The notes under the pieces were generated by a model. That model was not told the DNA's origin, ran no database searches, and was given only the letters and a program-made list of their open reading frames with translations. Shown here one piece after another: positions 115 through 22,404 of a stretch of DNA of 27,298 bases. This stretch comes from an uncultured Armatimonadetes bacterium (GTDB lineage Bacteria > Armatimonadota > Fimbriimonadia > Fimbriimonadales > GBS-DC): positions 1 to 27,298 of the forward strand of contig CAKZQI010000030.1 of the NCBI GenBank assembly GCA_937139515.1, given 5' to 3'. Within the stretch, counting starts at the first letter, position 1. The number at the start of each line of letters is the position of its first letter. The translations under genes and the position numbers were made by a program.

Positions 115-143
115 GTCAGATTCTTCGCTGCGCTCAAAATGAC
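115..143. repeat. Partial copy (one arm) of the ~70-bp GTCATCCTGAGCG...CGCTCAGGATGAC palindromic element family
   Basis: Plus strand reads cagattcttcgctgcgctcaaaatgac. This resembles the right arm gagattcttcgcttcgctcaggatgac of the full copy at 21533-21603. Confidence 0.4.
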
Positions 144-206
144 AAAATGGGGACGAGGAGCACGAGCGGGCGAGACGCCCGCGCTCCCAGACAAAAGTTC
201 GCACCG

Positions 207-950
207 CTACCGAAAGCCCTGAACCAGCGCCTGCGCCAAAATGCCCCAACCGTTCGCCAGCGTGAACACCAACAACTTCGCCGGAAGCGACACAATCACC
301 GGGGGCAACATCATCATTCCCATCGAGAGCAGAATGCTCGCCACAATCAGGTCAATAATCAAAAACGGGATGAAGATGTAGAAGCCGATCAGAAAAGCGG
401 TCTTCAACTCGCTGAGAATGAAGGCGGGGATGAGCGTTGTGAGCGGCAGCTCGTCGGCAGTGCGTGGGGCGGGTTGCTTGCTGAGGCGGATGAACAGGTT
501 GAGGTCTTCGGTGTAGGTTTGGCGGAGCATAAAGGCGCGTACGGGCTTCTGAGCGCGCTGGGTCGCCTCTTGGAAAGTAATCTCTTGGCGCATATACGGC
601 TCCAGCGCTGTGCGGTTTATCTCGTCCAGCGTCGGCGCCATCACATAGAAGGTCAGGAACAGGCTCAGCCCTATCAGCACAGGGTTCGGCGGGATGTTGG
701 GCGTGCCTAACGCACTCTTGAGGAACGACAGCACAATCACAATCCGCGTGAACGCCGTCATCATCAACAGAATAGAGGGCGCCACCGAGAGCAAGGTCAA
801 CAGCGCCAGGATTTGAAGCGAGGTAGAGACCTCTTGTGGGTTGCGGGCGTTGCCGACCTCAACGCTCACGCGGGGCAGAGGCACGGTCTCCTGCGCCATC
901 AACGCAAGTGGAACCAGCCCCAAAACGATCACCCAAACCCAGCGGTTCAT
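207..950 (-). CDS. fliP: Flagellar biosynthesis protein FliP (type III export apparatus)
   Basis: 247 aa with a signal peptide. Conserved FliP block TAFTRIVIVLSFLKSALGT..PPNPVLIGLSLFLTFYVMAP and multi-TM architecture. Start overlaps the fliO stop (ATGA). Confidence 0.9.
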   Translation of the reverse strand: MNRWVWVIVLGLVPLALMAQETVPLPRVSVEVGNARNPQEVSTSLQILALLTLLSVAPSILLMMTAFTRIVIVLSFLKSALGTPNIPPNPVLIGLSLFLTFYVMAPTLDEINRTALEPYMRQEITFQEATQRAQKPVRAFMLRQTYTEDLNLFIRLSKQPAPRTADELPLTTLIPAFILSELKTAFLIGFYIFIPFLIIDLIVASILLSMGMMMLPPVIVSLPAKLLVFTLANGWGILAQALVQGFR

Positions 951-1513
951 ACGCCTCTCCCCAATAGCGTCTCCAGTTTCTGGCGGGTCTGTTGCAGGCG
1001 TGTTTGGACCTGCTGTTCCGTTTCGCGCTGGTAGTCCGAAGGGGGGCTATACGGCTGGGCGCGTCGGAGGGTTTGTTCAAAAGTGGCGTCGGCGGGAGCG
1101 GGGTTCGCTTCGGGCAGGGTGTCGGTCAGGTCAGCGATCAGTTGAAGCCCTTGCGGGGTACTGCCCACGAGGAGCAGTTTATCGCGCGCCTTGACCAGCA
1201 TCAGGCTCCCACCCGGCACCGCGCGGGTTTCAATCACCTTGACCTGTCCATCCACAGGGGAGCCGTTGCCCGTTTTGCTCGCCCAGCCGAGCAGTTTGGG
1301 CAAGCCGTAGCGTAGCCCGACGGCGACCACCCCCAGCGCCAGCGTCGCCTGAAGCCAGTTGAGCGAACCCCCTGAACTGGGCGGGGGCGCAATCCCGACG
1401 GGCGACCCTGTCCGCGTGCCGAACGCCCCCGGCTCCAGCGAAGCGTTCGGCTCCTGAGTCCACAGGCAGGCGACAAGCGCAATCCACAACCCTATTAGTG
1501 CGACGGTTCTCAT
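947..1513 (-). CDS. fliO: Flagellar biosynthesis protein FliO-like (single-TM, Pro/Gly-rich)
   Basis: 188 aa. One N-terminal TM helix then a Pro/Gly-rich region. It sits immediately between fliN/Y and fliP with 1-nt and 4-nt junctions, the canonical fliO position. The sequence itself is poorly conserved. Confidence 0.6.
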   Translation of the reverse strand: MRTVALIGLWIALVACLWTQEPNASLEPGAFGTRTGSPVGIAPPPSSGGSLNWLQATLALGVVAVGLRYGLPKLLGWASKTGNGSPVDGQVKVIETRAVPGGSLMLVKARDKLLLVGSTPQGLQLIADLTDTLPEANPAPADATFEQTLRRAQPYSPPSDYQRETEQQVQTRLQQTRQKLETLLGRGV

Positions 1514-1514
1514 C

Positions 1515-2459
1515 TTAGGCTCCTAACTTTTGCACGCGCTCGGCGGGCGAGAGGATTTCGGTGATACGCACAGCGAAGTTATCTTCCACCACGACCACCT
1601 CGCCCCGCGCAATCAGTTTGCCGTTGACCAGCACCTCAACGGGTTCGCCCGCCGTTTTATGAAGTTCAATGATAGACCCTGTGCCGATTTCCAGCAGTTC
1701 GCGCACTGCCAAGTTCACGCGCCCCAGCTCCACCGAGACCTCCAACGGGATGTCCAGTAGGAGGTCTAAGTTGCGTTCGGTGGGTTCCTCCGGCTCGGCG
1801 AACGGGTTGAACGCCATTGGCGTCGCTGTGGGGGCAGGCGTTTCGGGTTCGCTGAGGAGTGAGGCGAGCGGGTCATCTTGGGCAGGTTGCAAACCTAGCA
1901 AAGCGCGTGCCAGCCCCTCTGTGAGAAGCCAAGTGAGCGTGAACGGCGTGCGGTCTGGTATCTGAACCGTGAAGCGAGTGACGATTACCTCGTCCACAAT
2001 CAAGAAGTTGGGCGGGAAGGTCACCGGTTCGTGGTGCGCTTGGGGGTCAGCAGGGCTGAAAGCGGTATTGCGCAGGTTCCCGAACGCTATCGCCAAGCCT
2101 TGGCTAAGGTGTCCTGCGAACTCCTTGAACAGCTGGACGACGGTCTCGTCTATCGTTTCGCTCGGCGTGCCTGTGAGTGCCTCAATGAGCGCTTTTTCGG
2201 TCTCGGCGCGCTCGCTCATCTGGTCGCCCACGACAACCAGGCTCGGCTCATCAGACGCCTCACGGAAGCCAATCTGGGCGTACAACACCGGGTCGGCGGT
2301 GAGCAGGGTCAGGTCGGTGATGGGCACCGCTTGACTGGTGGGCGTCGGGATTTCCACCAGCACATTATTCTGCTCCGAGAGCTGCATCGCCACCGTCTGC
2401 CAGACGGTTTCTTGCTTGACCACGAACTGCGTTAGGACTTCGGGCTTCACCGTGCTCAC
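1515..2459 (-). CDS. fliN: Flagellar motor switch protein FliN/FliY (C-terminal SpoA/FliN domain with extended N-terminal domain)
   Basis: 314 aa. C-terminus LLLDIPLEVSVELGRVNLAVRELLEIGTGSIIELHKTAGEPVEVLVNGKLIARGEVVVVEDNFAVRITEI is the FliN surface-presentation domain. The long N-terminal region suggests a FliY-type protein. Confidence 0.85.
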   Translation of the reverse strand: MSTVKPEVLTQFVVKQETVWQTVAMQLSEQNNVLVEIPTPTSQAVPITDLTLLTADPVLYAQIGFREASDEPSLVVVGDQMSERAETEKALIEALTGTPSETIDETVVQLFKEFAGHLSQGLAIAFGNLRNTAFSPADPQAHHEPVTFPPNFLIVDEVIVTRFTVQIPDRTPFTLTWLLTEGLARALLGLQPAQDDPLASLLSEPETPAPTATPMAFNPFAEPEEPTERNLDLLLDIPLEVSVELGRVNLAVRELLEIGTGSIIELHKTAGEPVEVLVNGKLIARGEVVVVEDNFAVRITEILSPAERVQKLGA

Positions 2460-2462
2460 AGG

Positions 2463-3473
2463 CTAATCCTCCGTAACGATATCAGTAATGCTAACGACAT
2501 AGCGTCGGTTGCGGATGGCGGGTTTGCCACGATATTTCAGTTTATCTTCAATCAGCACATCAATCTTGCCGTTCGTTGGGGCATTGAGGACGAGCGTATC
2601 GCCCACTTTGAGTTCCAGTAGTTGTTTGAGGGTCATTCGGGTGCGCCCCAAGCGTGCGTGGCAGGTCATTCGGGTCTGCTTGAGGTGTTGGGTGAGCGCA
2701 TGGCGGATGTAGGGTGTGGTGCGCTTGCCTGAGGCAGAGACCCAGTTCTGCGAGCTGAGGCGTGGGGTAATCGGCTTGATGACCATGTGGGGCACACAGA
2801 GGCTCATCGCATCGCGTCGGTCGCCCACGCGTGCCTCCATCAGCGCAGTAATCACAATATCGCTGGGGGGCGCCACCTGAACGAACTGGGCGCTGGTCTC
2901 CAAACTCTCCACCTGCGGGTCCAGTTGCAAGATGCTCTCCCACGCACTACGAAACGCCATCAGCGCACGCTCTGCCAGCGCAATCACGAGGGGACGCTCT
3001 ATGTCGGTGAAGTTGTTGCGCTCAATCGGGCGCCCGACCCCTCCCAGCAGGCGGTCAATCAGCGTGAACACCAGCGAGTACTCCATCTCCAAAACCGACT
3101 CGCCCGTGAGGGGAGGCGAGGCGAAGATGATGAAGCACGACTCCTTGAGCGAGCGCATATAATCCTCGTAGGGGATTTGTTCCAGCGAGATAAGTTCAAT
3201 ATGCACGGGCACGCGTAGGTAGGTGGCGAAGTTGGTGGCGCACAGGCGGGCAAAGGTCTCAAATACCATTTGGAGGGTACGCAGTTGGTCACGCGAGAAC
3301 TTGTCGGGGCGTCGGAAGTCGTACACCTCGTAGGCGATCATGCGCTTCTGGTTGGCTCGCGTGCCGACCGGTGTCGCAGCGGGCGACCCAAAATCGGCTC
3401 CTGAGGAACCCTCGTCCGCACTCAGCGAGGCTAATAACGCCTCAATCTCGGCTTGCGAAAGAATCTCGCTCAC
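2463..3473 (-). CDS. fliM: Flagellar motor switch protein FliM
   Basis: 336 aa. N-terminal LSQAEIEALL CheY-P binding motif. FliM middle domain and a C-terminal FliN-like domain (GKIDVLIEDKLKYRGKPAI). Confidence 0.9.
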   Translation of the reverse strand: MSEILSQAEIEALLASLSADEGSSGADFGSPAATPVGTRANQKRMIAYEVYDFRRPDKFSRDQLRTLQMVFETFARLCATNFATYLRVPVHIELISLEQIPYEDYMRSLKESCFIIFASPPLTGESVLEMEYSLVFTLIDRLLGGVGRPIERNNFTDIERPLVIALAERALMAFRSAWESILQLDPQVESLETSAQFVQVAPPSDIVITALMEARVGDRRDAMSLCVPHMVIKPITPRLSSQNWVSASGKRTTPYIRHALTQHLKQTRMTCHARLGRTRMTLKQLLELKVGDTLVLNAPTNGKIDVLIEDKLKYRGKPAIRNRRYVVSITDIVTED

Positions 3474-3573: not shown

Positions 3574-3643
3574 GTCTCCCCCTGTTAGCCCGAGCGTTAG
3601 TAAGGGGTCTCAAACAGAGTGCGCGCACACCCTTCAGGATGAC
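3574..3643. repeat. Diverged copy of the ~70-bp palindromic element (same termini as 21533-21603)
   Basis: gttagcCCGAGCGTTAGTAAGGGGTCTC...CAGGATGAC. It shares the left arm and the terminal CAGGATGAC with the full copy; the internal and right-arm sequence differs. Confidence 0.45.
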
Positions 3644-3720
3644 AAGAAGCCTTGCGAGTGTGATTGAAATCACTGAAAAGGCGACCTTTTGTTAAGGTAG
3701 TTTTAGAGCGGAGGTGCACC

Positions 3721-4515
3721 ATGAACCTACCTGAACTCAGTTATGTGCAGTACTGGTTGGTGTACAATGCCTTTTCGTTTACCATAGCGGTGATGGCAGC
3801 GTCAGGGCTTTTCTTCCTGCTTGCCCGCAGCTATGTCGCCCCGAAGTACCATATTGCGCTCTATCTCTCCGCGTTAGTTGTGTTCATCGCTGGGTATCAC
3901 TACTTCCGCATCTTCCTGAGCTGGGATGAGGCGTACGATTTCAGCCAAGCCTCAGGAACCTATGTGCCCAGTGGTAAGCCGTTCAACGACTTCTATCGTT
4001 ATGCGGACTGGCTGATTACCGTACCGTTGCTTCTGACCGAGCTTATCTATGTGATGGCACTGCCTCGTGCGAAGGCGAATAGCCTCATCACCCGCTTGGT
4101 CATCGCGTCGGTGATTATGTTAGTGACCGGCTATCCTGGAGAGATAGCGCGCGACGATATGACGACCCGTCTCATCTGGTTCGTGCCCAGCACGCTGGCG
4201 TTCATCTACATCCTGTATGTGCTGGCGACGGAGCTGAACCGTGTGGTTGCTGAAGCGAAGTTCTCAGAAGCCGTCAACCGACGCATCTTCGCAGCGCGCA
4301 ACCTGACGATTATTACCTGGCTGTTCTATCCGATTGCCTATCTGGTGCCTGTGTTCGGCATTTCGGGTGCCACGGCTGAGGTAATCGTCCAGCTTGGCTA
4401 TAGCATCGCCGACCTGACCGCTAAGGCGCTGTTCGGCGTGATGCTCTACCTGATTGCTCGCGAGAAGACCCTGGCAGAAGAGCCAGAGTACGCTCGCACC
4501 GCCGCGACCCCGTAA
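3721..4515 (+). CDS. Microbial rhodopsin, xanthorhodopsin/Gloeobacter-rhodopsin-like proton pump (DTE motif)
   Basis: 7-TM protein. Helix C RYADWLITVPLLLTE gives a D/T/E proton-pump triad, and helix G has SIADLTAKALFG with the Schiff-base Lys. Strong similarity, recalled from memory, to Gloeobacter rhodopsin blocks (VYNAFSF, IAGYHYFRIF, TGYPGEI, YPIAYL). RBS GGAGGT sits 7 nt before the ATG at 3721. The upstream in-frame ATG at 3664 is probably not the start. Confidence 0.85.
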   Translation: MNLPELSYVQYWLVYNAFSFTIAVMAASGLFFLLARSYVAPKYHIALYLSALVVFIAGYHYFRIFLSWDEAYDFSQASGTYVPSGKPFNDFYRYADWLITVPLLLTELIYVMALPRAKANSLITRLVIASVIMLVTGYPGEIARDDMTTRLIWFVPSTLAFIYILYVLATELNRVVAEAKFSEAVNRRIFAARNLTIITWLFYPIAYLVPVFGISGATAEVIVQLGYSIADLTAKALFGVMLYLIAREKTLAEEPEYARTAATP

Positions 4516-4581
4516 ACTCACCATTTGGTGCGACTCCTCCATAGGGGTCGCACCCACTCCAAAGACGAGGAGGCTGATGTT

Positions 4582-5376
4582 ATGAAAAAGAATGGTTTTA
4601 CCCTTATAGAGCTGCTGGTCGTGATAGCGATTATAGCGATACTGGCGGCGATATTGTTCCCTGTATTTGCACAGGCTCGTGAACGGGCACGCTCGGCAAC
4701 CTGTCTCAGCAACCTGAAGCAGACCGCGCTCGCGACCAGCATGTATGTCCAAGACTATGATGAAACCTTCCCGGTGAATTTGTACCTGAACTTCCAGCCC
4801 AGCGGTACGCCGTGTGTGTTCTCGTTCTACCAAGCGATTTACCCCTACCAGAAGAGTGCAGAGGTGTGGGTCTGCCCTTCCAACCCGCAGGCAGTGGACA
4901 TTCAGCTTGCCTTCCAGCTGGTGCAGCTACCGCCTATCTGCCAACCTGCCTTGAAGTTCTACAGCTACGATTTCAACTTCGGGCTGATAGATTTCGGTGT
5001 GGATAACAATCTATTCCCTGGCACAGGTCGCGCTGTCAAGCGATTGGCTCAGATAGAGTACCCTGTTGAGACGGCGGTCATCTATGACGGTTCTATTGTG
5101 TTCCAAGGAGGACCGTTCAACCTGTTTGATACCCCGATTGAGGGGCGCCACGCAGAGTCAGCAAACGCGAACTATGTAGACGGACACACCAAAGTGGTGC
5201 GCCTGAGAAAGATGCTCGACTCGTCCGGACGATGGCTCTTTGGGCGTGCGATGGACAACCGATCCAATGTTTACGGTTGGCTGGTGTCCGACGGCGGTCC
5301 TTACAACGACCGCTATCAGATGCGGGGCATTCCGACACGCAACGCCGATGGCACTTGGGGCTTGATTGACCCCTGA
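4582..5376 (+). CDS. Prepilin-type N-terminal cleavage/methylation domain protein, H-X9-DG (DUF1559) family
   Basis: N-terminus [27 protein letters not shown] is a type IV pilin-like signal with G/F/E+5. C-terminal [12 protein letters not shown] matches the H-X9-DG motif. RBS AGGAGG precedes the ATG at 4582. Confidence 0.85.
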
Positions 5377-13876: not shown

Positions 13877-15526
13877 ATGCTGGCGGAACACCTGCCGATT
13901 TTGCATGTGCTTATCCCTCTGGTGGGGGCGATTGTTCTGCTGACGGGGGGTGTCCTGCGCCCCCTGAGAGAAGTCGCTTGGGGACTGACCATGCTGGTGG
14001 TGCTCGCCTCGGCAGTGAGCGCCTTCCAACTCATCCCTCGCGTGCTGTCGGAAGGTCGCATCAGCTATGCGTTGGGCAACTGGAAGCCCCCGTATGGGAT
14101 TGAGTATGCGGTTGACTCGCTCAGCCTGCTCCTGATTTTGCTCATCACCAGCCTTACTGTGATTATCACGCTCTACACGCGTCATAGCATTCAGCGCGAC
14201 ATCACGCCCAACCAACAACCCTATTTCTATTCTGCCTACCTCTTGTTCGTGGGTGGGCTTTTGGGGATGGTCACCACCGCCGATATTTTCAACCTCTATG
14301 TGTTTTTGGAGATTGCGTCGCTGTCGGGTTATGCGCTGATTGCCATCGGGCGTCGGCGTGAGGCACTTTTGGCAAGCTACAACTACCTAATGATTGGCAC
14401 GATTGCCTCTACACTGTTCCTGCTAGGAATAGGGTACCTTTACATGATTACGGGCACGCTGAACATGCAGGATTTGCAAGCGCGCCTGGAAGAACTTTAC
14501 GGCTCCCGCACCCTGCTGGTGGGGATGGCATTTATCACGCTTGGGCTGTCGGTCAAAATGGCGCTGTTCCCCCTGCACACATGGCTCCCCAACGCTTACA
14601 CCTACGCGCCCGACGCCATCACGGCGCTGATGGCATCGCTCACCACGAAGGTAGGGGTCTACACCGCCTTCCGTGTCTTTTTCGGGGTGCTGAAGCCTTC
14701 GTTCCTCTCCCAGGTCGTGCCGTTGGAGGAAATCTTTATGCTTCTGGGGGCGTTGGCGATTCTGGGTGGCTCGCTGATGGCTATCTTCCAGAACAATCTC
14801 AAGCGGATGCTGGCGTACTCCTCCGTGGCGCAGATTGGTTATATAGTGTTGGGGCTGGCGATGTTAAATGTTTCGGGGATGATGGGTGGGCTGATTCATA
14901 TCGTCAATCACGCCGTCGTGAAGGCGGGGCTGTTCCTTGCCGTAGGCAACATCATTTACCGTACAGGTTTGGAGGAGGTTGACGACTTGAACCAGATTGC
15001 TCAACAGATGCCCAAGACGATGTTGGCGTTCACTGTGTGTGCCTTAGCGCTGATAGGTGTCCCTCTCACGGCGGGTTTCGTGACGAAGTGGTACCTCGTG
15101 TTGGGCAGTATTGAGGCAGGGCGTTGGTTCCTGGTGCCCGTAATCGTTGTTGGTGCGTTGCTGGCGGCAGTCTATCTCTGGCGAATTATTGAGCGGGCGT
15201 ATTTTTGGTCGCGGAAGGGAGGAGCTCTCACCCCCCCAGCCCCCCTCTCCGCAAGCAGAGAGGGGGGGGAACTCGGTTCCCCCTCTCCGTTTACGGAGAG
15301 GGGGCAAGGGGGTGAGGTGAACCCAGACCCCCCCTCCCCAACCCTCCTCCCGAATTCTGAGCAAGAGAGCCAATCGCCTCCCGCGCCTAAAACCTCCGAA
15401 GTCCCCCTTAGCATGCTCATCCCGACGCTCGTGATGGCGGTTCTGAGCCTTGCGTTAGGTATCTTTGCAGTTTTGCCGTTGAACCTCGCCGAACGGATTG
15501 CCAAGTCGTTGTTAGGAGCCGAGTAG
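13877..15526 (+). CDS. mrpD: Mrp antiporter subunit D (NuoM/N family) carrying an in-frame palindromic-repeat insertion near the C-terminus
   Basis: HTWLPNAYTYAPDAITALMASLTTKVGVY proton-pump motif and a multi-TM structure. Residues approx. 450-495 (LTPPAPLSASREGGELGSPSPFTERGQGGEVNPDPPSPTLLP) are encoded by the 125-bp repeat. Confidence 0.8.
   Translation: MLAEHLPILHVLIPLVGAIVLLTGGVLRPLREVAWGLTMLVVLASAVSAFQLIPRVLSEGRISYALGNWKPPYGIEYAVDSLSLLLILLITSLTVIITLYTRHSIQRDITPNQQPYFYSAYLLFVGGLLGMVTTADIFNLYVFLEIASLSGYALIAIGRRREALLASYNYLMIGTIASTLFLLGIGYLYMITGTLNMQDLQARLEELYGSRTLLVGMAFITLGLSVKMALFPLHTWLPNAYTYAPDAITALMASLTTKVGVYTAFRVFFGVLKPSFLSQVVPLEEIFMLLGALAILGGSLMAIFQNNLKRMLAYSSVAQIGYIVLGLAMLNVSGMMGGLIHIVNHAVVKAGLFLAVGNIIYRTGLEEVDDLNQIAQQMPKTMLAFTVCALALIGVPLTAGFVTKWYLVLGSIEAGRWFLVPVIVVGALLAAVYLWRIIERAYFWSRKGGALTPPAPLSASREGGELGSPSPFTERGQGGEVNPDPPSPTLLPNSEQESQSPPAPKTSEVPLSMLIPTLVMAVLSLALGIFAVLPLNLAERIAKSLLGAE
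15226..15350. repeat. ~125-bp GC-rich repeat, copy A, containing two perfect hairpins, inside the mrpD CDS
   Basis: About 90% identical to 16971-17095. Hairpin 1 is CCCCCCTCTC-cgcaagca-GAGAGGGGGG (15240-15267). Hairpin 2 is CCCCCTCTCCG-ttta-CGGAGAGGGGG (15279-15304). Confidence 0.85.
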
Positions 15527-15530
15527 CACG

Positions 15531-17324
15531 ATGAACCCTGTCATAAACGCCTCTGAACCGATATGGGCTGTGGGCAGTGCTTTTCTCACTGCTCTCCTGA
15601 TAGCGCTTACGGGCAGGTGGCAGAATCTGCGCGACCTGTGGAGCCCGCTGGGCGCGCTGGCTCAGTTTGGGATTGTAGCGTCGCTCGTGCCCGCTGTGCT
15701 GTCAGGCGAGACCCGCACCTTCACCCTCACCACGCCCATGCCTGGGGTCGCCCTCTACTTCAAAGTGGACGAGTTGGGGCTATTCTTTGCCCTGATGGCG
15801 TCGTTCCTGTGGTTCATCGCCTCGCTCTATTCGGTAGGCTATATGCGCGCCCTCAAGGAGCACGCCCAGACCCGGTTTTTCGCCTTCTACGCCATTTCGT
15901 TGGGGTCTGCGGTGGGGATTGCGTTTGCAGGCAACCTGTTCACCTTGTTTGTGTTCTACGAGATGCTCACTTTGGCGACCTACCCGCTGGTCGTCCACAA
16001 ACAAGATGCCGAAGCACGGGCGAAGGCGCGCGTCTACATGACCTATCTGCTGGGAACCTCTATCGGCTTCCAGTTCACGGCGATCTTGGTTATTTACGGG
16101 ATTTCGGGCGAGCTGAACTTCACCAAAGGCGGGTTCCTGCAGGGTCAGGCACCCGATTGGCTCTTGCTCTCGGCGTTTCTGCTTTATATCGCTGGGATTG
16201 GCAAGTCGGCGATTATGCCTTTTCACAAGTGGCTTCCCTCAGCGATGGTAGCGCCTGCGCCTGTGAGTGCGCTCCTACACGCCGTGGCGGTCGTCAAGGC
16301 GGGTGTGTTCACCGTGCTGAGGGTGGTGGTCTATGTGTTCGGGGTGGACTGCTTGGTGAGCCTGCAGGTAGCGCAGATTTTGCCTTATGTTGCGGGCACG
16401 ACGATTGTGGTAGCCTCGCTGATTGCCCTGTTTCAGGACGACCTGAAGTTGCGACTTGCCTACTCCACGATTAGCCAGCTCTCGTATGTTGTGTTGGGGG
16501 CAGGGCTGTTGTCACCGTTGGGAGCGATGGGCGCGACGCTCCATATGGTGTTCCACGGCTTTGCGAAGATTACACTCTTCTTCACAGCAGGGCACATCTA
16601 CTGCGCCACCAAGAAGACCAAAATCAGCCAGATGCGCGGGATAGGCAAACAGATGCCCTTCACGATGATTGGGTTTACGATAGGTGCGTTGGGGATGATA
16701 GGGCTTCCTCCCGCCTCCAGTTTGTGGAGCAAGTGGTACATCGGTTTGGGCGCCCTTGAGACCCAACACTACTTCGCTCTAGGTGTGCTGGTGGTCAGCA
16801 CGATTTTGAATGCCCTGTACTTTTTGCCGATTGTCTACTCCGCTTTCTTTGAGGGTGGGGGGGGAGTAGAAGCCCTCACCCTCCCCAGCCCTCCCTCTCC
16901 CAACACTGTGGGAGAGGGAGAGAGCCAACTGCTCCCCTCTCCCGACGCTGCGGGAGAGGGGTCGGTAAACCTCACCCCCCCAGCCCCCCTCTCCGCAAGC
17001 AGAGAGGGGGGTGAAGCCCTATATTCCCCCTCTCCGTTTACGGAGAGGGGGCAAGGGGGTGAGGTGAACCCAGAAACCCCCTCCCCAACCCTACCCCTAA
17101 GCGCAGGGGGAGAGAGCCAACTGCTCCCCTCTTCCGAAGCTTCGGGAGAGGGGCAGGGGGTTAGGGCAACCGAGAAGCCTCCAACAAGTGAGGTCATAGA
17201 GTTCTCTACACCCTACCTAACCCTAATGACGCTGGCAATTTGCGCCACGGCGCTGGGCGTGCTGGTGCTGTTCGTTTACCCCCATCCCTTTCTGGAGTTG
17301 GCACGGAGGGTCGCTGGGCTATGA
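15531..17324 (+). CDS. NuoL/MrpA N-terminal-like antiporter subunit with multiple in-frame hairpin-repeat insertions
   Basis: AMVAPAPVSALLHAVAVVKAGVF resembles the NuoL/MrpA motif PTPVSALIHAATMV. It has about 14 TM helices. Residues approx. 445-545 are a low-complexity P/G/S/E linker encoded by five hairpin repeats. RBS AGGAG precedes the ATG at 15531. Confidence 0.75.
   Translation: MNPVINASEPIWAVGSAFLTALLIALTGRWQNLRDLWSPLGALAQFGIVASLVPAVLSGETRTFTLTTPMPGVALYFKVDELGLFFALMASFLWFIASLYSVGYMRALKEHAQTRFFAFYAISLGSAVGIAFAGNLFTLFVFYEMLTLATYPLVVHKQDAEARAKARVYMTYLLGTSIGFQFTAILVIYGISGELNFTKGGFLQGQAPDWLLLSAFLLYIAGIGKSAIMPFHKWLPSAMVAPAPVSALLHAVAVVKAGVFTVLRVVVYVFGVDCLVSLQVAQILPYVAGTTIVVASLIALFQDDLKLRLAYSTISQLSYVVLGAGLLSPLGAMGATLHMVFHGFAKITLFFTAGHIYCATKKTKISQMRGIGKQMPFTMIGFTIGALGMIGLPPASSLWSKWYIGLGALETQHYFALGVLVVSTILNALYFLPIVYSAFFEGGGGVEALTLPSPPSPNTVGEGESQLLPSPDAAGEGSVNLTPPAPLSASREGGEALYSPSPFTERGQGGEVNPETPSPTLPLSAGGESQLLPSSEASGEGQGVRATEKPPTSEVIEFSTPYLTLMTLAICATALGVLVLFVYPHPFLELARRVAGL
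16891..17153. repeat. Cluster of five palindromic hairpin repeats, including copy B of the 125-bp unit (16971-17095) flanked by a ~47-bp direct repeat (16915-16961 and 17107-17153)
   Basis: Hairpins: 16891-16920 (12-bp stem CTCCCTCTCCCA/TGGGAGAGGGAG), 16934-16961 (CCCCTCTCCCG/CGGGAGAGGGG), 16984-17011, 17026-17051 and 17126-17153 (one stem mismatch). All are in frame with the host CDS and contain no stop codon. Confidence 0.85.
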
Positions 17325-19248: not shown

Positions 19249-19977
19249 ATGAAGCAATCAATCGGCGACTGGGCACTGATCCAACAGACCGTATCGTGGG
19301 GCATCACCCTTACCCCACACCAGCTGAGCCAGCTGGAACGCTATCTGGAACGGCTTTATGAGACCAACCAGCAGTTCAACCTGACACGGGTGCCCCCTGA
19401 ACAGACGGTAGGACGCCACATTATCGACTCGCTCTGCTTGCTGGCTGTCGCTGAGTTTGCGGAGGGCGCACGCTTGCTGGACATCGGTACGGGCGCTGGA
19501 CTGCCCGGCATTCCTCTCGCTATCGTTCGTCCTGACCTGCAGGTGACCTTGCTCGACTCCCACGCGAAATCGGTGCGCTTCTTGGAGCAGGTCTGCCAAG
19601 AGTTAGGACTGAAGGCAATCGCCATCCACGCCCGCGCTGAGGAGTGGGCGCATAACTCCGCCGTGCGAGAGGGGTTTGACAGTGTCGTTGCCCGTGCCGT
19701 CGCCAAAATGCCCGTACTGGCAGAACTGATGCTCCCCTTCTTGAAAGTTGGCGGAACTGCCCTTGCCCTCAAGAGTATCCACGAACACGATGAGGTCCTC
19801 AGCGCCCACAAAGCGGTTGAGCAGTTGGGGGGTCAACTCTGCTTGCACGAGGTTCCTATCCAGGCCGAGCAAGGTACGCTCACACGCCTCATCGCGCGCA
19901 TCACCAAAACACACCCCACCCCCAGTGCATATCCCCGCCGTTGGAGCCTCATCACGAAACATCCCCTACACGAATGA
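19249..19977 (+). CDS. rsmG: 16S rRNA (guanine527-N7)-methyltransferase RsmG (GidB)
   Basis: Conserved blocks: YETNQQFNLTRV, GRHIIDSL, LLDIGTGAGLPGIPLAIVRPDLQVTLLDSHAKSVRFL and VVARAVAKMPVLAELMLPFLKVGGTALALKS. Located near oriC. Confidence 0.9.
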   Translation: MKQSIGDWALIQQTVSWGITLTPHQLSQLERYLERLYETNQQFNLTRVPPEQTVGRHIIDSLCLLAVAEFAEGARLLDIGTGAGLPGIPLAIVRPDLQVTLLDSHAKSVRFLEQVCQELGLKAIAIHARAEEWAHNSAVREGFDSVVARAVAKMPVLAELMLPFLKVGGTALALKSIHEHDEVLSAHKAVEQLGGQLCLHEVPIQAEQGTLTRLIARITKTHPTPSAYPRRWSLITKHPLHE

Positions 19978-21104
19978 GAGTCGCCATCGATGCCCGCCTG
20001 CTCACAGGAGCCTACACCGGAGACCGCACCTACTGGCGGGGCTTGCTGAGCGCCCTGAGCAAAATACTCCGCCCCGACCAAGACCGTCTCCTGCTTTTCT
20101 CAACGCGCCCTATCCCAGCGGGGACACTGCCTGAAAGCCCTATTTTTGAGCCAGTAGTTGTGCCTGCCCTTAGTGAACGCCTCTGGAGCCTCTTCCGATT
20201 GCCCGCTCTGGCTCGGCAACATCGGTGCGACCTTGCTCACACACAATACACCGTTTCACCTTTCTTTAGAATGCCCGTACTTACGACAGTTCACGATATT
20301 TCCTTTTTGGTCTACCCTGAGTGGTTTCCGCTCAAGGATCGGATACTCTTGCGATGGACAATCCCCGCCTCCTGCCGAAGGGCTTGCAGGGTTCTGACCG
20401 TCTCTGAGTCGTCGCGAGAAGACATACTGCGATACCTGAACCTTCCCTCTGAAAAAGTGATTGCCACGCCGAACGGACTCCCCGAAGGTTTCCACCCGAT
20501 ACCGAAAGCGGAGGCGCAGGCTTGGGTCGCCAAGCACTACAATATTCGTCTACCTTTCGCCTTGGCGGTGGGGGTACTCCAGCCCCGCAAGAACCTGCTC
20601 TTAGCGATTGAGGCGGTACATCTCGCCCGCGAAAAGTGTCCCGACTTGCAGTTGGTGCTGACGGGCAAATCGGGCTGGGGTCTCAAGGCGATTCGCACGG
20701 CGCGCCAAGCTCTGGGCGATACCCACTGGCTCATCGAAACGGGCTATGTGCCCGATGAGCATTTGGTCTGGCTGTACAACGCCTGCGAGGTGTTTTTGTA
20801 TCCCTCCTTTTACGAGGGCTTCGGGCTTCCGCCTTTGGAGGCGATGGCGTGCGGGTGCGCTGTGATTGCCTCCAACGGGGGGGCACTGCCCGAAGTGGTG
20901 CAGTCGGGAGGCATCCTGCTTCCCCCCACCGAACCCGGCATGTGGATGGAAGCCATTCTCACCCTCCTGCAAAATCCGTCCTACCGAGAGAGGCTTCAGG
21001 CACAGGCGTTGGAGCAGGCGAAGCGGTTCCGCTGGGAGCAGACCGCCCAACGCACCCTGCAAGCTTATCAAGCTTGCCTCGAGTTATCCACAAATTGTGG
21101 ATAA
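19974..21104 (+). CDS. GT4-family glycosyltransferase (glycosyl transferase group 1)
   Basis: Starts MRVAIDARLL. Has the C-terminal GT4 motif FLYPSFYEGFGLPPLEAMACGCAVIASNGGALPEVV. Its ATG overlaps the rsmG stop (ATGA). Confidence 0.85.
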   Translation: MRVAIDARLLTGAYTGDRTYWRGLLSALSKILRPDQDRLLLFSTRPIPAGTLPESPIFEPVVVPALSERLWSLFRLPALARQHRCDLAHTQYTVSPFFRMPVLTTVHDISFLVYPEWFPLKDRILLRWTIPASCRRACRVLTVSESSREDILRYLNLPSEKVIATPNGLPEGFHPIPKAEAQAWVAKHYNIRLPFALAVGVLQPRKNLLLAIEAVHLAREKCPDLQLVLTGKSGWGLKAIRTARQALGDTHWLIETGYVPDEHLVWLYNACEVFLYPSFYEGFGLPPLEAMACGCAVIASNGGALPEVVQSGGILLPPTEPGMWMEAILTLLQNPSYRERLQAQALEQAKRFRWEQTAQRTLQAYQACLELSTNCG

Positions 21105-21382
21105 CTCCGTGTGGATAACCGATTCACGCCCCTCCGCGCCGAGTTATCCACAGGTTATCCACAAGTTATCCACAGAGTTATCCACAATTGCTTAGCTCGG
21201 CTAATTAACCAGCAAGTCAGCTCTAAAAAGGTGCATTTTGAACTCAAAATCGGTGCCAGAGCGCACCCATATTATACCGACCGACGGGTCGAAAAGCCGA
21301 GTTATCCACAATTCCACATCCCTAATAATTACAATGACTCTCTCTATAGGAAGGGAATCGAATTGTGGTTGGGTGTGGATAA
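21084..21382. other. Chromosomal replication origin (oriC) core: 8 perfect DnaA boxes TTATCCACA/TGTGGATAA plus AT-rich stretches
   Basis: Perfect 9-mers at 21084-21092 (+), 21097-21105 (-), 21110-21118 (-), 21144-21152, 21155-21163, 21166-21174, 21178-21186 (four tandem, 11-12 bp apart), 21302-21310 (+) and 21374-21382 (-). AT-rich segments lie at 21228-21250, 21268-21282 and 21318-21348. rsmG (gidB) is adjacent. Confidence 0.85.
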
Positions 21383-21532
21383 CTCGCTGAGACCCCCAGA
21401 GGGCCTACAAGCCCATAGAGAGCAAGAAAGCAGTAGAAGTCTCTGAGAGAAACTTATGCAGAATGTCCTCAACTGTAAAGCCAAGCAGTAACACCCAACA
21501 GCGAGTTTTAGTTCAATACGAAAAGCCCACTT

Positions 21533-21603
21533 GTCACCCTGAGCGTTAGCGAAGGGTCTCTACTTCGGGTGGCACCGAGATTCTTCGCTTCGCTCAGGAT
21601 GAC
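21533..21603. repeat. 71-bp palindromic element with 13-bp terminal inverted repeats (GTCACCCTGAGCG...CGCTCAGGATGAC), full copy
   Basis: Arms CCTGAGCGTTAGCGAAGGGTCTC and its near-reverse-complement GAGATTCTTCGCTTCGCTCAGG flank an 18-bp core. Related copies lie at 3574-3643 and 115-143. Confidence 0.6.
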
Positions 21604-21679
21604 ATATCGGGGTAAGGACTGACGAGAGGGCATCAAAGTGTGAGTAGGTTGGACAATTATGAACTCAGGGAATCTCTCC

Positions 21680-21707
21680 TTGTCAGGGATACCTGAAGGG
21701 GTATAAT
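21680..21707 (+). promoter_or_regulatory. Sigma-70-type promoter (TTGTCA-16-TATAAT) for the 21733 gene
   Basis: -35 TTGTCA at 21680-21685, -10 TATAAT at 21702-21707. RBS GGAGGT lies about 8 nt before the ATG at 21733. Confidence 0.55.
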
Positions 21708-21732
21708 CCCCACCGATGGAGGTAATGACGGA

Positions 21733-22404
21733 ATGGGTTGGTTGACCCCCGATTTTCGCACGATGCTTCAAGACCGTTTGCGCGATTTGCAGATGGAAGT
21801 CCGTGCGGAAGGGGTGAGATTGGGTGAACTGCGCAAAATCAACAAAGACTTCGCCAACGCCTACCGCTTCAAGTGGATGCGCGTGTTATACAAGGAACCG
21901 CTCAAACTGCGCTTAGAGTCGGAGGTGCTCTCACGGCGCATCACCTATGTGCTGAATGGAGGCACAAAACTGGTCACTGCGCCCGGCGAGCGCATCCGAG
22001 AGGATGTCTCTAACTCTCCTGGCAAACGCCAGACCTCTATGGACTTTGGTTTTATTACCCCTGCGTTGGCGCGTCAGCTGGATGTGAAGTTTTTGCGTGA
22101 AGAGCGGGTGGATGGCGTAGTACTTCCTGTGTTTCAGTTAGAGTGGAACTACGGCGATGACGATGCACGCCACATCGTGTGGATGGACCCCGAAAAGAAA
22201 TATATCGTGCGACGCGTGTGGTACAGCCGAACAGGAACCTACCGTGCGCGCTTTGAGCATAAAGAACCTGTGCAGGGCGCGCCGGGCATCTGGATCCCCT
22301 CCCGCATCGAGGTCTACAACAGAGACCAGCGATTCGGCGGGCGCACGGTCAACAGCAACATCAAGGTCAATCAGGGCTTAGATGACTCCCTCTTCAGCGT
22401 CTAA
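21733..22404 (+). CDS. Hypothetical protein, possibly LolA-like/outer-membrane lipoprotein-sorting fold
   Basis: 223 aa with a strong promoter and RBS. Beta-rich composition; the C-terminal ...KVNQGLDDSLFSV resembles LolA-like domain endings. No N-terminal signal peptide is evident. Confidence 0.35.
   Translation: MGWLTPDFRTMLQDRLRDLQMEVRAEGVRLGELRKINKDFANAYRFKWMRVLYKEPLKLRLESEVLSRRITYVLNGGTKLVTAPGERIREDVSNSPGKRQTSMDFGFITPALARQLDVKFLREERVDGVVLPVFQLEWNYGDDDARHIVWMDPEKKYIVRRVWYSRTGTYRARFEHKEPVQGAPGIWIPSRIEVYNRDQRFGGRTVNSNIKVNQGLDDSLFSV

Follow-up and report, generated by a model that had tools for sequence, protein, structure and literature searches.

In the REP systems described so far, each family belongs to one lineage and to its RAYT. 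The unit is an imperfect palindrome of 20-40 nt, at whose 5' side stands a conserved unpaired foot. Two units face each other across a short, variable spacer and so make a long hairpin, and the Y and Z units of BIMEs make heterotypic pairs. The copies are intergenic, numerous and occasionally clustered, they lack target-site duplications, and the hairpin on single-stranded DNA has been proposed as the recognised form. Apart from the specificity for lineage and RAYT, the element described here is like the REP/BIME/REPIN group in these respects, with its many copies counted across genomes. The described REP superfamilies carry a 5' foot reading GT[AG]G or CGTC (PMC6006769, PMC3733652), whereas the foot of the present unit is (T)GTCA, with GTCA invariant in 116 distinct arms (where it was fixed by the search pattern) and the preceding T found in 111 of 130 copies. 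It also differs from REP in having a single 28-nt consensus over about 13 phyla and phages among the matches listed, a stem with a G.A/A.G internal loop and a GNA/GNNA mini-hairpin apex, and no RAYT or REPtron arrangement was seen at 259 loci searched with a motif regular expression. The sequence of the element was absent from the two REP papers PMC3733652 and PMC6006769.

Other described systems share part of this anatomy. The subterminal hairpins of IS200/IS605 elements and of their miniature derivatives are likewise small and imperfect; an HUH/Y1 transposase recognises them in single-stranded DNA, and they likewise leave no target duplication, but they form two different end hairpins beside a fixed target tetra- or pentanucleotide, whereas here the same unit occurs twice, and no conserved flanking target sequence was found at 130 element copies. 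Integron attC sites resemble it in that their imperfect inverted repeats enclose a variable centre and that they are recombined as folded single strands; unlike them, the element has no RYYYAAC/GTTRRRY core sites (its ends are TGTCAYYCT ... AGRRTGACA) and no cassette array beside an integrase. To our knowledge, the hammerhead ribozyme, the K-turn, CIRCE, parS/dif, DNA uptake sequences and the N4-type hairpin promoter do not fit it in sequence or architecture. A search of Rfam 15 returned nothing overlapping the element at E values up to 10, and only a tRNA-Cys reached the gathering score in the window.

The window, that is, the whole stretch of DNA analysed, comprises 27,298 nt from an uncultured Armatimonadetes bacterium. 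A near-perfect palindrome had been predicted at 21533-21603. The palindrome and the identity of its arms were upheld, but the arms had been drawn too short and the spacer too long (16 nt, not 18): the full copy is a 73-bp near-perfect palindrome whose arms of 29 and 28 nt run from T-GTCA to TCTC (Table 1). Its letters, in the order arm, spacer, arm, are TGTCACCCTGAGCGTTAGCGAAGGGTCTC, TACTTCGGGTGGCACC and GAGATTCTTCGCTTCGCTCAGGATGACA. As RNA the plus strand was predicted to fold into one long hairpin of -48 kcal/mol (z -6.1) and the minus strand folded at -45.9 kcal/mol (z -7.5), with none of 200 shuffled sequences as good in either case; the DNA fold was -24.1 kcal/mol (z -5.6). The left unit contains an intra-unit stem, ACCCT/AGGGT, closed by the GNNA-loop variant of the mini-hairpin described below, and its minimum-energy DNA fold, ....(((((..((....))..)))))..., was -4.7 kcal/mol. 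In the right unit the outer TC and inner AA are incompletely complementary, a class seen in three of 226 units, and no stable DNA fold was predicted for this unit by itself. The full copy matches the search pattern that retrieves the family in other genomes, and it is unchanged between two independent public assemblies. Within the window the terminal 13-mer occurs eight times with up to two mismatches, against 1.7 expected (none of 100 shuffles reached eight). The 73-bp palindrome is a genuine member of a short non-coding hairpin repeat family.

Table 1. Coordinates of the repeat family in the window.
Feature	Position	Strand	Description
Full element	21532..21604	.	Two inverted 28-29-nt units and a 16-nt spacer, together one long hairpin; read directly
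Left unit	21532..21560	+	TGTCA-CCCT-GA-GC-GTTA-GC-GA-AGGG-TCTC; unit-HMM E = 0.0013
Spacer	21561..21576	.	TACTTCGGGTGGCACC; variable, apical loop of the long hairpin
Right unit	21577..21604	-	Minus strand reads TGTCATCCTGAGCGAAGCGAAGAATCTC; unit-HMM E = 4.2e-9
Solitary unit downstream of fliP	118..144	-	Minus strand reads TGTCATTTTGAGCGCAGCGAAGAATCT; unit-HMM E = 1.4e-5
Decayed relic between fliM and the rhodopsin gene	3583..3644	.	Alignment to the full copy; marginal

Two further copies had been predicted in the window, next to genes labelled fliP, fliM and rhodopsin, labels that proved correct. The half copy downstream of fliP was confirmed: it agrees with the full copy's right arm at 24 of 27 positions, which is the best local alignment in the window. 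The copy between fliM and the rhodopsin gene had been described as diverged and full-length. Its left arm (3583-3611) was indeed recognisable, being identical at 22 of 29 positions and carrying the same rare GTTA loop as the full copy, but it is not full-length, as its right end consists only of TCAGGATGACA at 3634-3644 and about 9 nt of that arm are deleted. It scored 28 in the alignment, where the background for the window was 15.1 +/- 2.8, and neither a unit-HMM match nor a fold signal (z about 0) was obtained for it; we read it as a decayed relic, and a marginal one. The window thus contains one full copy, one half copy and one relic in 27 kb. The half copy stands without a partner arm, and a TGTCA at 93-97 is a possible leftover.

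From the sequences of the family, the building block is better read as a self-folding unit of 28 nt than as a palindrome of 70 bp, and what had been called terminal inverted repeats as two inverted copies of that unit. Units were detected with an nhmmer unit profile, and their consensus is TGTCA-YYCT-GA-GC-GNA-GC-GA-AGRR-TCTC. As a single strand this would form a hairpin with five Watson-Crick pairs (AYYCT/AGRRT), a 2x2 internal loop G.A/A.G in the context YGAR, two G-C pairs and a loop of the GNA or GNNA kind, with a conserved unpaired foot on either side, TGTC and TCTC. In 218 of 226 units the outer YY can pair with the inner RR of its own arm. This pairing is not an ascertainment effect, because the inner RR lies outside the pattern used to search for genome loci. 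Doublets whose arms differ at YY are informative: intra-arm complementarity was kept in both arms in 31 of 36, and the inner dinucleotides were identical between the arms, as pairing between arms would need, in only two of the same 36. Across the 116 distinct arms 94% of cells were paired, against 20-53% in slid controls, and 56 cells showed double changes against 17.6 +/- 3.0 in shuffles (none of 500 reached 56), although this covariation is limited to two base pairs and proceeds through three or four discrete unit types, so that shared descent inflates the counts. Other complementary stems were also seen, namely ATGCT/AGCAT, ATTGC/GCAAT, ATCCC/GGGAT and ACTCT/AGAGT. By standard nearest-neighbour rules lone units were predicted to fold only weakly as DNA (-1.9 to -4.7 kcal/mol) and not better than shuffled sequences; the case for the proposed unit hairpin therefore rests on the covariation and on what has been published about G.A and GNA motifs.

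The loop was GNA in 203 of the 226 units and mostly GNNA in the remainder. The variable bases between GAGCG and GCGAAG, preceded by the G that closes the GNA or GNNA loop, were AA in 82 units, CA in 80, GA in 21 and TA in 20, and mostly three bases ending in A in the other 23. The apex of nearly every unit is thereby the sequence motif of the GCGNAGC/GCGNNAGC DNA mini-hairpin, a GC clamp under a G-N(-N)-A loop. A much greater stability in DNA than in RNA has been reported for such mini-hairpins, and they sit at the primase site of phage G4, at plasmid ssiA and at the promoter of the phage N4 virion RNA polymerase (PMC13037366). The units resemble d(GCGNAGC)/d(GCGNNAGC) sites in that N is free, the loop G and A are conserved, and 3-nt and 4-nt loops both occur. 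The priming and promoter sites, however, are single functional sites of specific replicons, whereas the present unit is a dispersed repeat with an additional stem and feet.

The repeat is not a local duplication, and the refuting condition attached to the prediction, a lack of further copies, is clearly contradicted by the data. The arms were found at 120 or more genome loci, in about 13 phyla among the matches listed and including isolates, with phyla assigned from the titles of the sequence records. Carriers among the matches listed were Acidobacteriota, Chloroflexota, Gemmatimonadota, Bacteroidota, Alpha-, Beta- and Gammaproteobacteria, delta-proteobacterial groups, Firmicutes, Planctomycetota, Verrucomicrobiota, Armatimonadota, Nitrospirota, Cyanobacteria and Saccharimonadales; the isolates included Hymenobacter, Legionella massiliensis, Mucilaginibacter, Sphingobacterium and Dyadobacter. 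In the metagenome-assembled genome DAHVFL01 up to five contigs carried the element among the matches listed. Complete doublets were present at the 120 or more genome loci and on nine IMG/VR contigs, and the exact single unit on at least 120 IMG/VR contigs. Searches of 50,697 phage records and 5,426 E. coli genomes found no element, and a search of 72,556 plasmids gave one single-arm match, at an unannotated spot in Gloeothece. By these matches, tailed phages and 13 or more bacterial phyla carry the repeat in near-unchanged form.

At genome loci 146 facing doublets were counted against 17 single units and five back-to-back and 11 tandem arrangements, and on viral contigs about 100 true single units. 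The doublets are often heterotypic. Elements are 56-86 bp long, intergenic and dispersed, with conserved arms and a spacer of 10-35 nt that varies among copies, even inside one genome. In acidobacterial subfamilies with a common inner stem the flanks do not align and similarity ends at the element borders, so these are dispersed copies and an explanation as orthologues was ruled out. Two pairs of same-genome copies (L064/L088 and L029/L074) share their loop and a few flanking bases.

The original prediction had offered a REP- or MITE-like mobile repeat. Its REP-like half fits the anatomy best. As a classical MITE, the arms would be terminal inverted repeats, with TG...CA ends, for the DDE transposase of a full-length insertion sequence located elsewhere, and the perfect TIR-like arms, the TGTCA...TGACA ends and the short, dispersed, intergenic copies would suit such an element. 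Bacterial MITEs such as Correia/NEMIS, RUP and Nezha are similarly short and non-coding, with inverted arms, and vary in presence or absence between relatives. We nevertheless regard this origin as very unlikely. No target-site duplication was found among 130 copies: flanking direct repeats of 2 nt were at chance (seven against 8.1 expected) and those of 3 nt were lacking (none against 2.0). Repeats of 4 nt (four against 0.5 expected) and 5 nt (two against 0.13) speak for a MITE at a few copies, but at least 124 of the 130 have neither. Unlike the arms of MITEs, those of the element are internally self-complementary with covariation and are common as single units; the interior is not conserved, spacers differ within one genome, and no transposase gene was found between or beside the units at 259 loci.

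The reading that we favour, tentatively and at a little less than an even chance, is a non-autonomous interspersed hairpin repeat of the REP/REPIN kind. The hairpin and its feet would be recognised on single-stranded DNA, for example at the replication fork, by a trans-acting single-strand DNA enzyme, conceivably of the HUH/Y1 type and RAYT-like or IS200/IS605-like. Such an enzyme would cut and rejoin DNA without target duplications, whose lack is expected of HUH/Y1-type single-strand transposition and not of DDE transposases. Units or doublets would in this way be copied to new intergenic sites, and phages may carry units between hosts. The inverted pair of units that in REPINs is the replicating entity has its counterpart in the 146 facing doublets, and whole doublets lie in unrelated flanks. 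A cognate RAYT, which the original prediction had suggested looking for, was not encountered in the DNA around the elements: a motif regular expression found no HUH/Y1-like ORF in some 2 Mb flanking the elements at 259 loci, the HUH...Y motif search returning one false match in the genome loci and two in the viral loci. Nor did any neighbouring protein family recur at the loci: when the ORFs of the genome loci were clustered all against all, nothing beyond generic families (ABC transporter, histidine kinase, AMP-ligase, TonB receptor, GroEL) emerged, and the ORFs between distant inverted units were phage structural genes.

A terminator or regulatory hairpin common to the copies had also been proposed, on the ground that all copies lie close to the ends of transcription units; in a stricter form it would be an intrinsic terminator or a regulatory hairpin specific to the neighbouring genes. 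Within the window only the half copy, 63 nt past the fliP stop, lies at a gene 3' end; the relic is in the divergent region between fliM and the rhodopsin gene, and the full copy follows a DnaA-box cluster. Apart from that half copy, the strength of the hairpin is what would recommend a terminator. No T-run was found in the flanks of 132 copies, nor any T/U run after the stem in the window, and a terminator scan did not flag the window element. The 83 elements with genes on both sides lay in 41 tandem, 22 divergent and 20 convergent gaps, the same proportions as in the background (243, 92 and 88), with no enrichment at gene 3' ends, and the neighbouring genes were unrelated from locus to locus. 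No evidence was found that the full copy serves its flanking genes, and the element is not read as a regulator of the flagellar, rhodopsin or lipoprotein-sorting genes. The terminator reading is largely refuted, and we give this whole group of functions hardly any credence.

Copies in phages raise the question of a function in RNA. In one tailed-phage group, recognised by PHROGs portal, terminase and major head genes, single units occupy different intergenic junctions from one member to another, in the sense orientation in 11 cases and antisense in one, and they end 15-22 nt before a start codon, just ahead of the ribosome-binding site. At one shared junction the unit is of the CC/GG type in one phage and of the TT/AA type in three others. 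One viral locus (L241) differs from an otherwise identical one (L251) by the gain of a 267-nt hairpin block with a 65-nt flanking direct duplication; here the units moved within a cassette by recombination and not by transposition, which counts against the favoured reading. These observations suit a transcribed intercistronic hairpin for mRNA processing, stability or translational coupling, that is, an RNA-level cis element or mobile regulatory cassette spread for the most part by recombination between intergenic cassettes, above all in phages, in which the doublet would work in both directions or serve as an RNase III duplex. The 267-nt gain is also the behaviour described for PeSL cassettes, short intergenic motifs that mark modular gain and loss in T4-type phages (PMC2839356, PMC4122927). 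The PeSL cassettes, however, consist of an early promoter together with a terminator-like stem-loop and belong to one phage group, whereas the present unit has no internal promoter or U-tract and is mostly chromosomal. We consider the RNA-level explanation unlikely. Outside that phage group there was no orientation rule (six units sense to eight antisense), and a general strand-specific function upstream of ribosome-binding sites was accordingly ruled out; the 11:1 bias may largely reflect common descent, and a cruder orientation test on phage-contig units gave 22 against 32. Bacterial copies occupy divergent, tandem and convergent gaps at the background proportions given above, and GNA triloop mini-hairpins have been reported to be much weaker as RNA (PMC13037366). 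Finally, the promoter predicted for the next gene starts only after the full copy of the window, which therefore may not be transcribed at all.

The full copy sits between that promoter and a cluster of nine perfect DnaA boxes 150 nt away, next to rsmG, and the intergenic region that holds it is probably oriC. This setting, the presence of units in tailed phage genomes and the occurrence of the same mini-hairpin at the G4 primase site, ssiA and the N4 virion RNA polymerase promoter (PMC13037366) would agree with a site for a host or phage DNA-replication protein, such as a single-strand initiation hairpin, for which the proximity of DnaA boxes would be functional. That proposal, too, seems to us quite improbable. 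None of the other 129 loci had a DnaA-box cluster near the element and box density there equalled the background, which ruled out a link to oriC as a general property of the family. The family is absent from the E. coli genomes and nearly so from the plasmids searched, and no partner protein was identified. The two closest relatives (L132, L133), with a flanking protein 89% identical, have the same origin region and DnaA-box cluster without the element; in both, 21466-21700 (about 235 nt) is replaced by about 65 unrelated nucleotides, and no clean empty site was obtained from them. The full copy is probably an incidental, lineage-specific gain in the probable oriC region.

Several loci show irregular copies that could point to a palindrome generating itself, with the very stable mini-hairpin priming snap-back synthesis or template switching, so that palindromes would arise and grow at nicks or ends and no dedicated enzyme would be needed. 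Two loci (L240, L162) have nested symmetric stem extensions of the form GTCATTCTGA(CCCTGA)n...(AGGGGA)nAGAATCTC, two (L167, L156) have runs in which several 5' halves precede several 3' halves, and full elements are accompanied by partial, stutter-like copies of their outer 16-20 nt in L032 (1785-1860), L100, L072 and L219. Hairpin-primed extension by a repair polymerase is cited in a review (PMC13037366). Self-generation would leave unexplained, however, that the same 28 nt, unpaired feet included, recur over about 13 phyla, and that copies with sharp borders are dispersed to unrelated loci; single units, moreover, are not palindromes of their flanks. We judge it slightly less probable even than a MITE or a replication site.

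Sister families have other stems than the unit but the same two feet, TGTCA and TCTC, and the same GAGCG-NA-GCG apex. A bolder interpretation, which we put forward as doubtful, is that the unit and its sisters together would constitute a pan-bacterial, phage-borne hairpin signal on single-stranded DNA, a distinct class of mobile element read by a new HUH-type or other single-strand DNA enzyme or by a replication or priming factor. If so, the near-identity over about 13 phyla would reflect ongoing phage-borne horizontal spread and not co-evolution of REP and RAYT. Under the preferred REP/REPIN-like reading, too, a unit with one consensus over about 13 phyla and tailed phages is a misfit with the lineage-bound picture of REPs and REPINs, and such breadth points to an unrecognised, widespread trans-acting enzyme or to phage traffic of tiny non-coding DNA. 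Insofar as the unit is small, with a defined covarying stem and an apex of known unusual DNA stability, experiments on binding, cleavage and mobility should be easy to design.

The unit is also relevant to gene annotation. A minus-strand ORF at 21508-21771 had been called spurious, and this was correct: it reads ...VILSEAKNLGATRSRDPSLTLRVTSG... over the element, translating VILSEAKNL, and the public record does not call it as a gene. The accompanying claim that the repeat is often mistranslated in databases was not sustained, as a search of protein collections with the spurious ORF found nothing. The AntiFam paper has no entry of such element translations, and a literature search by DNA 13-mers and translated peptide strings gave only unrelated primer or chance matches. 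In many uncultured lineages copies of the element give rise to spurious ORFs and to false extensions at the N or C terminus, which annotation with a model of the unit would eliminate. Read-through ORFs containing CHPERSEGS, EILRSAQND and VILSAAKNL were present in the six-frame ORF lists of carrier loci.

The palindromic element of the window (table below) is predicted to fold as a single long hairpin on either strand, at -48 and -45.9 kcal/mol as RNA (z -6.1 and -7.5; 0 of 200 shuffles equalled it) and -24.1 kcal/mol as DNA (z -5.6). The finding is real. Two public assemblies of independent origin, GCA_036725885.1 (a metagenome-assembled genome) and an ENA contig, carry it without any difference, which excludes an artefact of assembly. 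Its terminal 13-mer occurs eight times in the window with up to two mismatches, against 1.7 expected, and both of its arms were detected by a profile built from family members. The half copy that the original prediction placed downstream of fliP was found by the same profile (E = 1.4e-5), with 24 of 27 positions identical to the right arm of the full copy. The gene labels fliP, fliM and rhodopsin were also correct. The further copy proposed between fliM and the rhodopsin gene held up in part: its left arm is identical at 22 of 29 positions and shares the rare GTTA loop, and the copy aligns with a score of 28, where the background of the window is 15.1 ± 2.8; nothing beyond TCAGGATGACA is kept on its right side, the profile missed it and the fold signal was absent. 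We count it as a marginal and presumably decayed relic.

Coordinates of features in the window and in collected loci carrying family copies (L-numbers; genome contigs or IMG/VR viral contigs)
Feature	Record	Position	Strand	Remark
Full copy	window	21532-21604		TGTCACCCTGAGCGTTAGCGAAGGGTCTC / TACTTCGGGTGGCACC / GAGATTCTTCGCTTCGCTCAGGATGACA; read directly
Solitary arm	window	118-144	-	
Third copy, putative relic	window	3583-3644		
Third copy, left arm	window	3583-3611		
Third copy, right side	window	3634-3644		
fliP	window	207-950	-	
fliM	window	2463-3473	-	
Rhodopsin gene	window	3664-4515	+	
Prepilin-type N-methyl/DUF1559 protein gene	window	4525-5376		
Mrp/Proton_antipo_M genes	window	13877-15526; 15531-17324		adjacent
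Second repeat family	window	15227-15345; 16875-17153		CCCCCTCTCCG-N4-CGGAGAGGGGG
GT4 glycosyltransferase gene	window	19941-21104		
Nine perfect DnaA boxes TTATCCACA	window	21084-21382	both	within 300 bp
Very probable oriC, intergenic region	window	21105-21732		
ORF over DnaA boxes	window	21111-21446		spurious
ORF translating the element	window	21508-21771	-	
Sigma-70-like promoter TTGTCA-16-TATAAT	window	21680-21707		predicted, strong; 11/12 match
LolA/TP_0789-like gene	window	21733-22404		
Extended repeat copies, ZM16-3	L029; L074	2245-2360; 6600-6730		
Tandem stutter arrays (units whole or partial)	L032; L100; L219; L167	1-300 and 1785-1860; 1712-1773; 9400-9493; 172-453		periods 20-33 nt
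Maximal ORFs falsely extended through units	L099; L236; L203	251-318; 1501-1620; 3833-3880		
Hairpin-packed intergenic regions (phage/IMG/VR)	L192, L161, L203, L208, L240, L241, L251, L162, L156, L167 and others			

Across 132 complete elements the arms were near-invariant and the 10-35-nt centre was variable, even among copies of one genome. The true ends read T-GTCA...TGAC-A, the next flanking positions are weakly complementary, and no target-site duplication was present at the element ends. What decides the anatomy is the self-complementarity within every arm (TGTC-A-YY-C-T-GA-GC-GNA-GC-GA-A-G-RR-T-CTC), which makes the arm itself the unit. In 218 of 226 arms (TC/GA 122, TT/AA 70, CC/GG 25, CT/AG 1) the outer YY complements that arm's own inner RR, a dinucleotide that lay outside the GTDB genome search pattern. 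Where the two arms are unlike at YY (36 elements), both were internally complementary in 31, and inner dinucleotides were alike between arms, as inter-arm pairing would demand, in only two. Among 116 distinct arms, 94% of cells pair, and double-change cells numbered 56, where shuffling gave 17.6 ± 3.0 and none of 500 shuffles reached 56; the covariation is confined to two pairs and runs through a few discrete types, in copies related by descent. Sliding the partner by 1-3 columns as a control left 20-53% paired. Alternative complementary stems surround the same apex (ATGCT/AGCAT, ATTGC/GCAAT, ATCCC/GGGAT and ACTCT/AGAGT). The original prediction had treated the arms as terminal inverted repeats, possibly of a MITE. 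A classical MITE was rejected on the missing target duplication, the self-folding of the arms, the occurrence of single units and the failure to see a parent insertion sequence in 259 loci; a DDE-type MITE, with the inverted arms as its termini, is quite improbable.

The apex is flanked by two G-A steps, each in a YGAR context, which favours tandem sheared G.A pairs. It reads GC-GNA-GC in 203 of 226 units and mostly GC-GNNA-GC in the remainder (GTTA in the window, for example). The motif, the d(GCGNAGC)/d(GCGNNAGC) mini-hairpin, is described by its discoverers as extraordinarily stable as DNA and far weaker as RNA; the primase site of phage G4, plasmid ssiA and the N4 virion-polymerase promoter are known to contain it (PMC13037366). 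Standard nearest-neighbour DNA parameters give exactly the unit fold, weakly (-1.9 to -4.7 kcal/mol, not significant), and predict no fold for the isolated right arm of the window's full copy (TC/AA type); these parameters may miss the special stability reported for G.A and mini-hairpin motifs.

In GTDB contigs, with one genome per species, the pattern for complete elements (GTCAYYCTGAGCG-N30-60-CGCTCAGRRTGAC) matched at least 120 stretches; in IMG/VR it matched 9 contigs, and a single exact unit matched at least 120. By record titles, the listed genome matches include Acidobacteriota, Chloroflexota, Gemmatimonadota, Bacteroidota with Ignavibacteria, Alpha-, Beta- and Gammaproteobacteria, delta-proteobacterial groups, Bdellovibrionales, Firmicutes, Planctomycetota, Verrucomicrobiota, Armatimonadota, Nitrospirota, Cyanobacteria and Saccharimonadales; cultured isolates among them are Hymenobacter species, Legionella massiliensis, Mucilaginibacter, Sphingobacterium and Dyadobacter. 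Membership in a widespread repeat family was thus borne out, in a family far larger than originally seen (about 13 phyla and phages). The family is not universal: no match occurred in 5,426 E. coli genomes or 50,697 deposited phage records, and one arm was found among 72,556 plasmids. No Rfam 15 family was matched by the element, and a literature search found no paper with its sequence or typical translations.

Genome loci held 146 head-to-head doublets versus 17 singles, 5 back-to-back and 11 tandem arrangements, and IMG/VR contigs held about 100 units without a partner arm. Distribution is intergenic and neutral to context, the neighbours being generic and unrelated across loci, which excluded a tie to particular genes. 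A shared terminator, as first suggested for the hairpin, was rejected: a T-run is absent and gene contexts (tandem 41, divergent 22, convergent 20) resemble background (243, 92, 88). A terminator or local regulator is the least probable of all readings. A sense-orientation bias upstream of ribosome-binding sites reached 11:1 in one phage group and stood at 6:8 elsewhere; a cassette element acting at the RNA level is unlikely.

The element disperses, as indicated by unalignable flanks, copies shared within genomes, absence in relatives and varying phage junctions. Acidobacterial subfamilies with a common inner stem have unalignable flanks, and their similarity ends at TGAATT-TGTCA...TGACA-AATTCA. 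On two contigs of one Ignavibacteria genome, two copies are alike in the loop and 15 flanking bases. In Chloroflexales bacterium ZM16-3 a palindromic repeat that extends to about 115 nt (GCAATACCGCAGAAGTAACGCTGT...ACAGCGTTACTT.TGC) encloses the element in each of two copies; the element may be nested there in a different hairpin repeat or belong to an extended subfamily. It is missing from the closest relatives of the window. In one group of tailed phages, recognised as such by PHROGs matches to portal, terminase and major head, units lie at different intergenic junctions in different members. Over an aligned stretch of about 600 nt, the phage contigs L241 and L251 are alike except that L241 has an additional 267 nt of hairpin units at the junction that follows the major-head gene. 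A direct duplication of 65 nt (TGGTGGGGGAGTGGAGACGCACC...ACAAACTG) bounds this block and marks it as a recombinational gain or loss of a cassette. Part of the dispersal is therefore cassette shuffling, at least in phages. A group of uncultured tailed phages whose head modules are syntenic has intergenic regions crowded with varied short hairpin repeats whose presence varies between members: the present unit, GTCATTGCGAGCGAAGCGTGGCAATCTC, GAGATTG/CAATCTC arrays, GTAGCC...GGCTAC hairpins and G+C-rich CCCCTCTCCC hairpins.

The reading ranked first, a tentative one, is a non-autonomous element that resembles REP/REPIN repeats and acts as a hairpin of single-stranded DNA. An HUH/Y1-type enzyme, working in trans on single strands, would recognise the unit hairpin with its conserved feet and copy the unit, and phages would serve as vehicles of spread; substrate, enzyme and route are all inferred. 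A motif search of about 2 Mb around 259 loci revealed no ORF of RAYT-like or other HUH/Y1 type. The REP-like part of the original label was apt insofar as the element works like REP/BIME/REPIN. It nevertheless lies outside the described REP superfamilies on two defining points, its foot being GTCA rather than GT[AG]G or CGTC (PMC6006769, PMC3733652) and its distribution not being lineage-specific. The family's interest lies in a single consensus across about 13 phyla and phages, a covarying unit hairpin with a DNA mini-hairpin cap, the lack of a known partner enzyme, and the absence of a description from the literature searched.

The full copy lies in the 629-nt gap between the GT4 glycosyltransferase and LolA/TP_0789-like genes, directly 3' of rsmG/gidB. 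With its DnaA boxes, the first two overlapping the final bases of the glycosyltransferase ORF, this region is very probably the chromosomal origin. Contrary to the original proposal, the copy is not at a transcription-unit end; it sits 150 nt beyond the last box and 76 nt ahead of the predicted promoter, itself 26 nt 5' of the LolA/TP_0789-like gene. GGTATAATCCC is also kept in the relative L132. In L132 and a second relative, L133, the LolA-like protein is 89% identical and ten DnaA boxes keep the same layout, with the element missing; in both, about 235 nt (21466-21700) have given way to unrelated sequence of about 65 nt, which leaves no clean empty site. Since these relatives lack the element and no cluster of DnaA boxes lies near it in any of 129 other loci, the oriC location is incidental. 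The window's copy looks functionally incidental. That the element serves as a site for a replication or priming protein, as the mini-hairpin does in phage G4, has little probability. Elsewhere in the window, a bacteriorhodopsin-family gene, followed by a DUF1559 protein gene (3664-5376), is divergent to fliM...fliP (207-3473); DUF1559 proteins are typical of Planctomycetota and Armatimonadota.

Some full elements (L032 1785-1860, L100, L072, L219) have beside them partial stutter copies, in tandem, of their outer 16-20 nt. In L240 and L162 the stem is extended symmetrically by nested repeats, GTCATTCTGA(CCCTGA)n...(AGGGGA)nAGAATCTC, and some arms have hairpin insertions at the apex. Self-generation by fold-back, which such structures might recall, is very improbable. 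Sister families share feet and apex with other stems, such as GTCATTGCGAGCGAAGCGTGGCAATCTC and GTCATTCCGAGCG...GCGAGGAATC. A second, unrelated family of G+C-rich hairpins lies in frame in the 3' parts of the window's Mrp/Proton_antipo_M genes, inserting for example LTPPAPLSASREGGE...SPSPFTERGQGGEV before the last hydrophobic segment, which is probably membrane-spanning; similar hairpins occur in phage intergenic regions (L203, L251).

The minus-strand ORF singled out as spurious does translate the element (VILSEAKNL...DPSLTLRVT), and both it and the ORF over the DnaA boxes are absent from the public record's gene calls. Elsewhere, read-through of units falsely extends a histidine kinase ORF at its end (...CHPERSEGS...EILRSAQNDS) and places VILSAAKNL at an ORF start, illustrating the annotation artefact that the original prediction had raised.
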